Below are positions 5,597 to 18,562 of a stretch of 18,562 nucleotides of DNA, one piece after another. This stretch comes from Promethearchaeota archaeon. Its GTDB lineage: Archaea > Asgardarchaeota > Lokiarchaeia > Sigyniarchaeales > SOKP01. The position numbers were made by a program, and so were the translations under genes. How positions within the stretch are numbered: the stretch's first letter is position 1; each line of letters begins with the position of its first letter. A model generated the notes under the pieces. That model did no database searches. It worked only from the letters and a program-made list of their open reading frames with translations, and was not told the origin of the DNA. The stretch spans positions 1 to 18,562 of the forward strand of contig SDNY01000071.1 of the NCBI GenBank assembly GCA_004524535.1, written 5' to 3'.

Positions 5597-7855
5597 TCAA
5601 TTTAATATTAATAATTTCCTTTTTTGAGGTACACTAACTTTTTCTACACCCAATTCTTTTACGTAATCTGCTACATCAACTAATTTCTTTGAACTTTGGT
5701 GAAAAAAACAGACTTCCTTAGGCTCAAGATTTTTTATCATTTCTGTTAACTGTAGTTTATCTCCATGAAGTTTTATTTTCAACTGGGGAGCAAAGTTGTT
5801 TAACAATAAAGCTCTAAATGGCATTTTCCATGTTTCAGAAAACTCAATTTCTTCGGCACCTTCAATAAGATCTAACCCCGGTTGTTCATGAATTGCCCCG
5901 GATAGAAAAACTAAGTTATGAGGATTCCTTCCTATTATATTAATTATATTCCTAATTATTCCGTATGAAAGATCTGGTGGATGAGAAATTATTATATTAT
6001 TCTTTTTACGCAGAAAATCTAAATCTTTAAGATCAAACCATCTCATTTTAATACTATTAAATGGATTCGCTTTATCTCGTATTAATCTCGAAATAGGACC
6101 ATAAATATATTCATAACGATGATTTATAACTTGAATGTTTTTTCGGACCATTTGATCTACATAAATATTGGGCCTCTTTTGATATCCTTTTTTCAATTGG
6201 AGCTTTCTAAAATATCTCCAAAAAGTTAAAAGAAAAGAGATTGCTAAACTGGAAGGATCCGCTCCTATTAAAGAGCTATCACCATATTCGGCTTTCTGCT
6301 CCATGAATAGAATTAAACTATGAAATTGCTGAGATTGATCGCCTAAATCTTCATTTGCACAGACAGCATCAATAAGGAGAAAATCAATTGGACGAGAAAT
6401 TTGTTTCAAAAAGCTTCTTGTCCCAGCAAATGGAGTAATATCCCAGTATGTATAATCACCTGTATATAAAAATCGATAATTTTTGATTTTTGCTAACAGC
6501 ATTAAAGCTCCTGGCATATGTCCAGCGTGAAAAAACGAAAGATAACAATTTTTATTCTTAAATTCTATTTTTTCACCATTTTCAACGTAAATTACATTTT
6601 TTATTACATTTATATAACTTTCATCCTCAATAACATCATGATTTTCCTGTTTTAAGAACTCAGAATCTCGGAGGAGGTAAAGATCTAAAGTAATTCTTGA
6701 AGATAAAATTGGAACGTCCGGATATAATTTAATTAATTCCTTTAGCCCTGAAATATGATCGAAATGACTATGAGAGATGAAGATTGCGTCCAACTTTGGT
6801 CTGAAGGAAATATTATCTAATTCTTTTTCATTTTCTTCATTATTACTTATAATCTGATCTTCTTCGGCCTCGAGAATATACTGAGGTAAGTTTTCAAGAT
6901 AATCTTCAATAAATCTATAATAATGCTCAGTAATTCCGCAATCTAGTAGTATGTTAAATTTACCCAATCCTAGAATAATACAATTATGATTAGGTTTTAG
7001 CACTAAAGGGTAAAGTGTTATTCTAATTTTGTCAGAATCATTCTCACTAAGATTTATATCTTTAAAATAATCAGATGTATATCTCCTCTCAATTTTATCA
7101 ACGGCAATAGAAACATCACTATCACCAACAGGAACTCCTGTAATGTAAAAATACCAACCATAATGTTTGACAAGTTCATCAAGATTTTCATACATTTTAT
7201 CCCCAATTAAAGATTTAATGACAATTACTTTCTCATTAAAATAATAATTGATCGTTTTAATAGCAAATTTTTCTTTTTCAGGGATTTGCTTATTATGTAA
7301 AAAGAAATGGTTTAAAAGTTCATTAAACGGTTTTTGAGGGATTTTTTTTGAATTTATAAGCTTAAAATATTTAAAATATTCTTTAGTCTTATATAATCCT
7401 CGCATCTTCTCTTTTTGTTTAATTTTAATTTTATGTTCTTTAAATTCATATTCTTCTGTTTTCACGGTTATTTCTTCTTTTTTAATTTTCTTTTTCGTTC
7501 GTTTTGCTTTACTCATATCCTCCGTCTCGGAAACAAAGAAAAACCAACCATAAAGCCTAATAAATTTATCTCGATTCCAAATAAATTGCTTTCCATGTTT
7601 AGTTATAACAATAATTATACGATCTTTAGGGGAATATAAGATTTTTGAAACAGAATTTTTGGTTTTATTTGAGAGAGATGTATTTTTATTAAATAAATGA
7701 TCTAACACTTCATTAATTTCCTTTTGAGGAATTTTGCTTTTTTCCATAAAGTCTAATTTCTTCTTAAATGATTTAATTCTAAAAGAAGAACTTAATTCAC
7801 TTTTTTCTTCAATTAAAATGGATTTATTATTAAACTTAAATTCCTCCTTCTTCAT
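5597..7855 (-). CDS. Metallo-beta-lactamase/beta-CASP ribonuclease-like protein (CPSF73/aCPSF-like) with duplicated N-terminal domain
   Basis: LLDCG, SHSHFDH (HxHxDH), HAGHMPG, YTGDY, DFLLID, KLHGD and C-terminal FFHQ match MBL motifs 1-4 and beta-CASP motifs A-C. Confidence 0.8.
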   Translation of the reverse strand: MKKEEFKFNNKSILIEEKSELSSSFRIKSFKKKLDFMEKSKIPQKEINEVLDHLFNKNTSLSNKTKNSVSKILYSPKDRIIIVITKHGKQFIWNRDKFIRLYGWFFFVSETEDMSKAKRTKKKIKKEEITVKTEEYEFKEHKIKIKQKEKMRGLYKTKEYFKYFKLINSKKIPQKPFNELLNHFFLHNKQIPEKEKFAIKTINYYFNEKVIVIKSLIGDKMYENLDELVKHYGWYFYITGVPVGDSDVSIAVDKIERRYTSDYFKDINLSENDSDKIRITLYPLVLKPNHNCIILGLGKFNILLDCGITEHYYRFIEDYLENLPQYILEAEEDQIISNNEENEKELDNISFRPKLDAIFISHSHFDHISGLKELIKLYPDVPILSSRITLDLYLLRDSEFLKQENHDVIEDESYINVIKNVIYVENGEKIEFKNKNCYLSFFHAGHMPGALMLLAKIKNYRFLYTGDYTYWDITPFAGTRSFLKQISRPIDFLLIDAVCANEDLGDQSQQFHSLILFMEQKAEYGDSSLIGADPSSLAISFLLTFWRYFRKLQLKKGYQKRPNIYVDQMVRKNIQVINHRYEYIYGPISRLIRDKANPFNSIKMRWFDLKDLDFLRKKNNIIISHPPDLSYGIIRNIINIIGRNPHNLVFLSGAIHEQPGLDLIEGAEEIEFSETWKMPFRALLLNNFAPQLKIKLHGDKLQLTEMIKNLEPKEVCFFHQSSKKLVDVADYVKELGVEKVSVPQKRKLLILN

Positions 7856-16804: not shown

Positions 16805-18238
16805 TCATTTATCCTCAACATTAATGCCTAATTCTTTTAATTTATCCCGGATATTATCACTTAGGTCATATATTTTTCGGGTTCTCAACTCGGCTCTAAC
16901 ATCATAAATGATTTTCAATAAATTCTGAATAGTAGCTCCCTTTTCATCAAGTGATACCTCATCCCCTAGTGCTAATTGGCTTTTTAGATTCGGAAATAAA
17001 CCAAATATCTTATTCATATTATCTACAAAATTAAAGAATTTATCCTTGAAATCTTTATTAATAGGTAGTTTATTTTCCAATACTTCTCTGTTTATAACTC
17101 TAAATAATCTTAAGAATTCAGCGAGAGCGATGGGAGTATTAAAATCATCATCCATAGCTTTGATAATTGATTTTTCTGCCTTTTCGATTTCTAAAATCAA
17201 CTCTTTAATATTTTTAGAAGAAATATCTTGTATAGTTAGCTCATGGATATTTCTAATAGTACTTAAAAGCCTATTGTAGTTTTTTTGAGCTTGATTCATA
17301 TTGTCTAACGAGTAATTGATAGAACTTCGATAATGGCTTGAAAAAAGAAATAGTCTTATTACCATTGGGTCGTAATTTTTTATAACCTCCGAAACTAAAA
17401 AGAAATTTCCGAGACTTTTTGACATTTTTTCATCATCTATATTAACAAAGCCATTGTGCATAAAATAATTTGCAAATTTCTTACCTGTATATCCTTCTGA
17501 TTGAGCTATTTCGTTTCGATGATGTGGAAATTTTAAATCTTGACCCCCTCCATGGATATCAAGAGTTTCACCTAAAATATTAACTGACATGGAGGAACAC
17601 TCAATATGCCATCCAGGGCGACCTTTACCCCAGGGACTTTCCCAATAAGGTTCTCCTTCTTTGTGTTTTTTCCATAACGCAAAGTCTCGGTGATCTTCTT
17701 TATCATCTCCATAGGCAATATCTTGATCTTCAATATCCTCATTGTCATCGTGTAGCTCTCCTGCTTTTACATTCTGAAATATCGAATCATATTTTGGAAA
17801 AGTTTTAACAGAATAATATACAGAACCATTTCTTTCATACGCATGCTCATTTTTAATTAATCCTTGAATTACTTCAATCATAAAATCGATGGTTTCCGTA
17901 GCTCGTGGATTCATATAATCCTTTTCGACGTTTAAAGCATTCATGATATCCTCGTATTCTTTTATATATTGCTCGCTTAATGTATTAAAATCTATGTTCC
18001 TTTCATTTGCTCTTTTTATTATTTTATCATCAATATCAGTATAATTCTTTACTAATTTTACATTATAGCCTTTAAACTTTAAATAACGATGGACAAGATC
18101 AAAAGCAACGGCAGATTTAGCATGCCCCAAATGAGGACTATCATACACCGTGGGACCACAGACATACATTAGAACTTCATTTGGTTTGATTGTTTTGAAT
18201 TCCTCTTTCTGGAATGTCAAGCTATTATAAACCATCAA
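16805..18238 (-). CDS. cysS: Cysteine--tRNA ligase
   Basis: YVCGPTVY, HLGH (HIGH), NYTDIDDKII, DFALWK, WGKGRPGWHIECS, DIHGGG.DL.FPHH.NE.AQS, KMSKSLGN, MDDDFNT, SDNIRD.L. SD GGTGAT at 18253-18248. Confidence 0.97.
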   Translation of the reverse strand: MMVYNSLTFQKEEFKTIKPNEVLMYVCGPTVYDSPHLGHAKSAVAFDLVHRYLKFKGYNVKLVKNYTDIDDKIIKRANERNIDFNTLSEQYIKEYEDIMNALNVEKDYMNPRATETIDFMIEVIQGLIKNEHAYERNGSVYYSVKTFPKYDSIFQNVKAGELHDDNEDIEDQDIAYGDDKEDHRDFALWKKHKEGEPYWESPWGKGRPGWHIECSSMSVNILGETLDIHGGGQDLKFPHHRNEIAQSEGYTGKKFANYFMHNGFVNIDDEKMSKSLGNFFLVSEVIKNYDPMVIRLFLFSSHYRSSINYSLDNMNQAQKNYNRLLSTIRNIHELTIQDISSKNIKELILEIEKAEKSIIKAMDDDFNTPIALAEFLRLFRVINREVLENKLPINKDFKDKFFNFVDNMNKIFGLFPNLKSQLALGDEVSLDEKGATIQNLLKIIYDVRAELRTRKIYDLSDNIRDKLKELGINVEDK

Positions 18239-18290
18239 AATATTGAGATCACCAAAAAATCAAGTTTAAACATCTTAATTATTAATAAAA

Positions 18291-18402
18291 TGGAGCCAGC
18301 GGTGGGATTTGCACCCACGCTGCTTGCGCAACGGCTCTGCAGGCCGCCTCCTTACTACTCGGTTGCGTAAACTTATATTAACTATAAGTTTTATACGCTG
18401 GC
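18291..18402 (-). tRNA. tRNA-Cys(GCA), intron-containing, CCA encoded; predicted mature length 82 nt
   Basis: Spliced sequence: GCCAGCG TA TCCG AGTAGTA AGGA G GCGGC CTGCAGA GCCGT TGCGCAAGCAGC GTGGG TGCAAAT CCCAC CGCTGGC T CCA. It has a 7-bp acceptor stem, anticodon GCA, G37 and U73 (Cys identity elements). Exons are 18402-18393 and 18362-18291. Confidence 0.9.
18363..18392 (-). other. 30-nt tRNA intron at position 10/11 with relaxed bulge-helix-bulge motif
   Basis: Minus strand: GCGT-AT^A-AAACTTATA-GTTAA-TATAAGTTT-ACGC-AA^C. This gives a 4-bp central helix (GCGT/ACGC), two 3-nt bulges and a perfect 9-bp intron hairpin. Cutting after the 2nd bulge base restores the D stem (U10-A25, C11-G24, C12-G23). 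Confidence 0.8.
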
Positions 18403-18408
18403 GCTGGC
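18396..18408 (-). repeat. Tandem duplication GCCAGC-GCCAGCG: the tRNA leader repeats the acceptor-stem 5' strand
   Basis: GCCAGCG occurs at 18408-18402 and again at 18402-18396, in otherwise very AT-rich flanking DNA. Confidence 0.85.
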
Positions 18409-18562
18409 AATATTTATATTTCGTTAATTTTGTGTTCTTCTTTATCATATCAAAAATCCTTTATCACTTATATATTTAGTTCTAGTAAATGCTTAGAATA
18501 TTACAAACTAATTTAATATATTATTATATGAAAGCGTATGAAGCTAATATTTTAAAAAAAAA

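Follow-up and report, generated by a model that had tools for sequence, protein, structure and literature searches.

A leader copy of the acceptor strand as a probable cis-acting helper of tRNA splicing in an Asgard archaeon

Introns at non-canonical positions of archaeal tRNA genes, position 3/4 included, are on record in the available text of PMC4090602, and the relaxed motif class HBh' is set out in the accessible part of a preprint on Asgard tRNA introns (10.64898/2026.10.13.758758) as a combination of two bulges of 3 nt each, a central helix of 4 bp and, within the intron, a hairpin h' measuring 2 bp or more. In that helix, four nucleotides of the exon, 5' of the 5' bulge, face four of the intron, 5' of the 3' bulge. 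Acceptor-stem and junction introns are treated in Supplementary Note 3 of the same preprint, in whose available text the word "leader" has no occurrence. In the accessible portions of PMC4090602, PMC4033280 and PMC3218864, leaders appear only in connection with split or permuted genes or with leader length. Split and permuted tRNA genes (Nanoarchaeum, Thermofilum, Cyanidioschyzon) keep sequence outside the tRNA for building the EndA substrate; in the accounts available of such genes, the flanks are complementary to each other, themselves form the BHB and are cut off by EndA. In attenuators and riboswitches, where anti-terminator and terminator helices exclude each other, one strand has two alternative partners and the helix that is formed decides the next step. 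To our knowledge, archaeal tRNA introns have been thought removable only where the tRNA's own sequence permits a BHB.

The window considered here (the whole stretch of DNA that was analysed, 18,562 nt in length) contains a tRNA-Cys(GCA) gene with an intron between U10 and C11, preceded by a second copy of its 5' acceptor strand (Table 1). Compared with archaeal relaxed-BHB introns, this intron has the same helix, bulges and h', but the exon half of its helix lies in the acceptor stem and an element outside the tRNA, the leader copy, is added. As in split and permuted genes, extra-tRNA sequence would be kept for building the EndA substrate; the window leader, however, is identical to an exon strand, pairs in folding models with the 3' acceptor strand, lies outside the BHB and would be cut away by RNase P. 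A helper flank of the split or permuted kind, that is, a leader complementary to the trailer or the intron and forming the BHB with it, was not found in the window leader. Unlike attenuators and riboswitches, the proposed switch would respond to neither a ligand nor a ribosome; excision of the intron would drive it, and its target would be RNA processing rather than transcription. We propose that the leader copy is probably a new cis-acting helper for archaeal tRNA splicing; an element standing in for the 5' acceptor strand suggests a way round the limit mentioned above, by which an intron may use acceptor nucleotides. In the literature open to full-text search, which leaves aside subscription papers such as surveys of Thermoproteales, no account of a leader that duplicates the acceptor strand was found.

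Table 1. Positions of the tRNA-Cys(GCA) gene, its parts and neighbours in the window, and of two further tRNA genes of the same genome
Feature	Position	Strand	Basis or remark
Promoter-like AT-rich box gaactaaatatataagtgataaagg	18458..18482	-	read by eye in upstream sequences
Leader copy GCCAGC	18403..18408	-	sequence; with tRNA G1 (18402) gives the second GCCAGCG
13-mer GCCAGCGCCAGCG	18408-18396	-	5' end of tRNA-Cys(GCA) gene
tRNA-Cys(GCA) gene including intron, U73 and CCA	18291..18402	-	Rfam tRNA and intron-less orthologues
Exon 1, G1-U10	18393..18402	-	orthologue alignments: many begin at exon 2, exon 1 common
G5-U8, 5' strand of central BHB helix	18398-18395	-	5' bulge is A9, U10, A11
Intron, 30 nt, between U10 and C11	18363..18392	-	intron-less orthologues; BHB motif
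Intron hairpin h', 9 bp, loop GUUAA	18391-18369	-	
Intron ACGC, partner of G5-U8	18368-18365	-	followed by AA of the 3' bulge
Exon 2, C11 to C72	18295..18362	-	
Anticodon GCA	18340-18338	-	
3' acceptor strand CGCUGGC	18301-18295	-	
Discriminator U73	18294	-	
Encoded CCA	18293-18291	-	
cysS (cysteinyl-tRNA synthetase), 477 aa	16805..18238	-	52 nt 3' of tRNA-Cys gene, same strand
tRNA-Tyr(GUA), L071	G000:C24:6086-6280; locus 6071-6280	+	genome scan; C1-G72 pair, encoded CCA
tRNA-Ser(GGA), L072	G000:C188, about 6770-6954	-	genome scan

The minus strand of the window reads ...AAATATT GCCAGC GCCAGCG TAT AAAACTTATAGTTAATATAAGTTTACGCAA CCGAGTAG..., in which GCCAGCG occurs twice, at 18408-18402 and at 18402-18396, with one G common to both. 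The sequence thereby bears out an earlier reading made from the sequence alone (the sequence-only reading), which had placed GCCAGC directly before the tRNA and described an overlapping tandem of GCCAGCG. The 13-mer occurs once in the window and in none of 200 dinucleotide-preserving shuffles, even when one mismatch was allowed. The tRNA gene itself escapes routine annotation because of the intron at 10/11: the Rfam tRNA model scored 27.1 bits over 18294-18372, below the cut-off of 29, and used a false 5' strand, while ARAGORN missed the gene with default settings, intron options included. A tRNA-Ala(tgc) model, returned by ARAGORN at a lowered threshold, was rejected as wrong. The Rfam alignment nevertheless recovers a cloverleaf with anticodon GCA and discriminator U73, which we take to be a Cys identity element, and the intron-less orthologues have the normal layout. 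In 22 related genomes the gene runs without interruption, as GCCAGCGTATCCGAG... or a close variant; the gene in the window therefore contains, between U10 and C11, an intron of 30 nt. The AT-rich box upstream is conserved 5' of tRNA-Cys in several relatives (L001-L003, L007-L009; by eye) and, if it is a TATA box, would place the start of transcription 5' of the leader copy.

The neighbouring cysS gene has its best matches in four close archaeal relatives, beyond which come matches at 39-45% identity that are nearly all CysRS of bacteria and include one Thermoplasmatota MAG; the closest cysS relatives found by tblastn are MAGs labelled Promethearchaeota, i.e. Asgard archaea. From RNA run X20 a single contig was obtained, spanning 18102-18252, inside and just 5' of cysS. 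The tRNA-Cys has several oddities of its own. Its variable region (18319-18308, minus strand) comprises 12 nt, UGCGCAAGCAGC, with a possible 3-bp stem and GCAA loop, and may be read as an additional arm or as a tiny insertion. Among the orthologues, small hairpins of the same sort but of other sequence occur in some and the usual 5 nt in others. In the T loop (18306-18300 region), UGCAAAU, a G stands in place of the nearly universal U55, and the usual GG is missing from the D loop; these T-loop and D-loop oddities are kept in most tRNA-Cys orthologues of the family.

In the Cys intron, G5-U8 can pair with A35-C38, the ACGC located at the intron's 3' end, in a central helix of 4 bp bordered by the 3-nt bulges A9-U10|A11 and A39-A40|C41. 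Cuts placed by the rule N1N2|N3 (after the second nucleotide of each bulge), the BHB cut position that fits the canonical 37/38 geometry, give GCCAGCGUAU-CCGAG, which is the sequence of the intron-less orthologues. The outer exon helix h of the strict hBHBh' form is missing, as C2-A4 have no complement after the 3' bulge in the window; the motif is thus of the relaxed class HBh'. Across seven orthologues, 97.8% of the cells of the motif were paired, compared with 21-50% for slid controls; all cells of the central helix were paired, with U-A replaced by U-G in three of the orthologues, and 96.8% of those of the 9-bp hairpin h', where two pairs carried compensatory changes on both sides. Of the four nucleotides that the exon gives to the central helix, three (G5-G7) belong also to the acceptor stem, so that the two helices exclude each other, and the conflict between acceptor stem and BHB that the sequence-only reading had pointed out is a real one. 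The genome has two separate genes with a PF01974 (EndA) domain, on contigs C100 and C84, whose open frames span 203 and 202 aa; such a pair would fit a two-subunit splicing endonuclease. It also has an archaeal RNase P RNA (119 bits).

Folding of the window tRNA-Cys with RNAfold gave two different structures depending on the presence of the leader. Without it, the minimum free energy (MFE) structure (-43.4 kcal/mol) had the acceptor stem in its mature form and lacked the central helix, whereas with 6, 12 or 40 nt of leader it consisted of the leader helix plus the BHB (-45.2 kcal/mol), with the copy paired to all seven nucleotides of the 3' strand, C2-A4 bulged out and the central helix formed. 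The predicted probability of the central helix was 0.00-0.02 without the leader and 0.93-0.95 with it, and the ensemble probability of pairing between the leader copy and 18301-18295 was 0.93. Forcing the central helix in the leaderless RNA cost 4.1 kcal/mol, and blocking the copy while keeping the leader restored the mature fold (-43.6 kcal/mol). These models agree with the proposal, made from the sequence alone, that the upstream copy pairs with the whole of CGCUGGC and holds the 3' strand in the precursor, leaving G5-U8 free for the BHB helix. When the RNA was spliced in silico with the leader still attached, the leader register (0.69) prevailed over the mature one (0.18). The model thus places the two registers near each other once the intron is gone. 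A return to the mature register does not follow from folding alone and would have to rest on tertiary contacts or on capture by RNase P.

The comparison was extended to 153 genomes of the order, using a pattern that called for an insertion between nt 7 and the D-stem (nt 11) and did not call for a leader copy. The pattern matched in 20 genomes, 12 of which have tRNA-Cys genes with the intron; matches in the other eight did not start with GCCAG, were not tRNA-like and were discarded. A second copy of the 5' acceptor strand lies upstream in all 12 intron-bearing genes, whereas a search within 45 nt, with up to one mismatch allowed, found no copy in any of 23 genomes whose tRNA-Cys is without an intron of the 10/11 type (one of these has a D-loop intron). 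The distance between the copies varies. The register shift is 6 nt in eight genomes (GCCAGCGCCAGCG), 10 nt in G022 (GCCAGCG-TTC-GCCAGCG), 11 nt in G031 (GCCAGTG-AATT-GCCAGTG) and 12 nt in G001 and G003 (GCCAGCG-(T/C)CTTT-GCCAGCG). In G031, where the acceptor strands are GCCAGUG/CACUGGC, the leader copy has the same change, which is one covarying copy; covariation of the copy with the acceptor sequence was an expectation of the sequence-only reading, as was the restriction of the copy to genes with such introns. An A before the copy in five genomes allows an eighth pair, with U73.

Among 11 Cys orthologues that were folded, the predicted probability of the helix was 0.49-1.00 with the leader and at most 0.01 without; the lowest value belongs to G008, where the splicing-competent fold reached only 0.49, and the MFE structures of G031 show the same leader-dependent switch. 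A canonical BHB is absent at the expected junction in G001, G003 and G031 (L035, L036, L048), and one-step and two-step models built by hand for these three all failed to give that junction. In their introns, a GCAA adjoining the 3' splice site is paired with G1-C2(C3) and the two spacer bases before it (UUGC/GCAA), so that the 5' cut site falls within a large loop or where helices join; the introns of G001 and G003 contain two CGC elements each.

A second and independent case came from a scan of the window's genome (G000) for a 7-mer that is repeated within 60 nt and then followed by its reverse complement, in a GC-rich island with AT-rich flanks. An earlier scan for an acceptor complement plus CCA had given 701 candidates, mostly false, and these stricter filters were used instead. 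Three loci were returned, all three of them tRNA genes (Cys, Tyr and Ser); 3' (trailer) duplicates of an acceptor strand were not found in this genome beyond the reverse-strand images of the three leader cases. The tRNA-Tyr gene has several interruptions, at 8/9, at 37/38 and in the T arm, and is listed neither by the Rfam search nor by ARAGORN of the genome. Its 8/9 intron, 28 nt between U8 and A9, contains GAGG, which pairs with C3-C6 of the acceptor strand CCCCUCU, and the leader reads CCCCTCT-ATAAATAG-CCCCTCT.

With a search pattern that called for an insertion after U8 only, again with no copy required, tRNA-Tyr genes with the 8/9 intron were found in four of the order's 153 genomes, split evenly between the window's genus and one other genus; no further ones were found among 399 genomes of the phylum, where the three extra matches were not tRNA-like. 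CCCCTCT is repeated upstream in all four. The 7-mer is identical throughout, with spacers ATAAATAG, ATAAATAG, TAGATACA and ATACCAT. None of 25 Tyr orthologues that lack the 8/9 intron (23 checked by script, two by eye) has the leader copy, and six of these 25 carry D-loop introns. The predicted probability of the central helix in the four genomes was 0.67-0.98 with the leader, the value of 0.67 being that of G091, and 0.00 without it. A conserved promoter-like box stands 31 nt from the copy in G091, and 31-32 nt from the tRNA start itself in two intron-less relatives of the same genus (L075, L076); the distance to the copy is 29 nt in G000 and G105, by eye. As the box-to-copy distance is about the box-to-tRNA distance of the intron-less relatives, the spacing suggests that transcription of tRNA-Tyr starts upstream of the copy.

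The third locus, tRNA-Ser(GGA), is a counter-case. Its first 12 nt are copied 41 nt upstream, amid four TAACGCG repeats, and an intron near the acceptor stem is absent. No leader copy was found at any of 29 related loci that were fetched, the close relative G008 included, so that within this set it occurs only in G000. Recent duplication might account for it, as might a quirk of the assembly. An alternative in which the upstream copy is exon 1 of an intron-containing gene was rejected, as the 12-nt repeat has no self-complementary 4-mer for a central helix. The tRNA-Ser copy indicates that leader duplications can arise without the function proposed here and leaves room for an origin as a by-product.

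From these observations, GCCAGC together with G1 is rather likely to act as a surrogate 5' acceptor strand that enables BHB splicing of the 10/11 intron. In a precursor with no leader, the GC-rich acceptor stem of 7 bp would outcompete the central helix of 4 bp. In the primary transcript, the 3' strand CGCUGGC would be held on the leader copy, with C2-A4 single-stranded and G5-U8 free to enter a central helix, on whose borders lie the bulges A9-U10|A11 and A39-A40|C41 as well as the intron hairpin. Cleavage by the splicing endonuclease would follow, and a ligase would join U10 to C11. Once the intron ACGC is gone, the 3' strand would move to the true 5' strand, and RNase P would remove the leader as the last step. 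The 16 positive genes are from related genomes and may go back to as few as two events. That a leader surrogate strand is a general requirement for introns beside the acceptor stem, acting as an RNA chaperone and imposing splicing before final 5' trimming, because a precursor that was trimmed first would be trapped unspliced, is a more tentative proposal, to which we would give slightly less than an even chance.

Several other explanations of the duplication were considered. Assembly errors can yield short tandem repeats, yet chance or an artefact has a probability that is next to negligible, given the absence of the 13-mer from the shuffled sequences and the recovery of the arrangement from 12 genomes as well as from contigs of two further runs. 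The 6-nt-shift form alone is found in eight separately assembled genomes; a contig from run X2 covers 18370-18562 with one difference, and a contig from run X3, of another, unrelated sediment study, covers 18380-18464 with six substitutions, all of them 5' of 18408 (in 18409-18464), and no difference within 18380-18408. The duplication is thus not an assembly artefact, a possibility that the sequence-only reading had named as one that would undo its proposal. A real duplication could still be a neutral by-product, in which one event (tandem duplication or template switch) made both copy and intron and the copy is kept because the event is recent. Such duplications do happen, as the 41-nt leader duplication of tRNA-Ser(GGA), confined to G000, illustrates; the Tyr copy-to-box spacing in G091 equals the spacing of the tRNA start in L075 and L076, and the unit GCCAGCGTT(C/T) of G022 resembles a plain 10-nt tandem repeat. 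The 7-mer is nonetheless identical to its acceptor strand in all carriers while spacers and flanks have diverged, the register shifts differ (four in Cys, two in Tyr), the copy tracks the acceptor change in G031, its GC-rich sequence persists inside leaders of 7-17% G+C, and the intron hairpins are old enough to have acquired compensatory changes. On balance we consider a neutral by-product unlikely.

Two further readings accept a role for the sequence and assign it differently. The copy may be functional by a route other than the BHB, by setting the site or timing of RNase P cleavage, by shielding the 3' CCA or as a decoy for the intron ACGC. A leader helix stacked on the T arm would resemble an acceptor-T minihelix and would be a plausible RNase P substrate, judging from the MFE structures and the known behaviour of RNase P, and the helix also covers U73 in five genomes. 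The copy, however, is found only with introns that use acceptor nucleotides and is absent both from genes with D-loop, anticodon-loop or T-loop introns and from intron-less genes; as for a decoy, 3-4 nt would suffice, yet all seven are conserved, and the covarying position of G031 is one that the intron leaves unpaired. A role of this kind appears distinctly unlikely to us. It is also conceivable that the tRNA truly begins with the upstream copy and that the downstream copy belongs to a second intron or to a longer version of the first. With a 6-nt shift, removal of either copy gives the same product, and the window sequence alone cannot separate the two; the 4-bp helix, however, must directly precede the cut bulge, as the downstream copy alone does. 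Position 8 would moreover be A in Tyr and in G031 and C in G003, G022 would miss one base before the D-stem, and we know of no mechanism for removing 6 nt. These points make an upstream 5' end very improbable.

If the leader copy does serve as a surrogate strand, the positions open to tRNA introns depend on sequence outside the tRNA, and copies are to be expected wherever archaeal introns use acceptor nucleotides, for example with the 3/4 introns of Thermoproteales. The copy would represent a new kind of cis-acting signal in tRNA maturation, for which an obligatory order of processing is predicted. It also offers a usable signature for gene finders, since the tRNA-Cys gene goes undetected by ARAGORN and by Rfam at the gathering score, and the tRNA-Tyr gene is absent from the output of both.

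Beyond the three loci, the tRNA complement of the window's genome, which is rated 99% complete, stands at 19 Rfam tRNA matches and 20 ARAGORN predictions. Many of its tRNA genes, with interruptions in the D, anticodon and T loops, go unseen by standard finders. A tRNA-like gene on the reverse strand of contig C188 (31693-31846), with several insertions, an anticodon loop CUUCAAA (UCA) and a G discriminator, may, by eye, be a tRNA-Sec.
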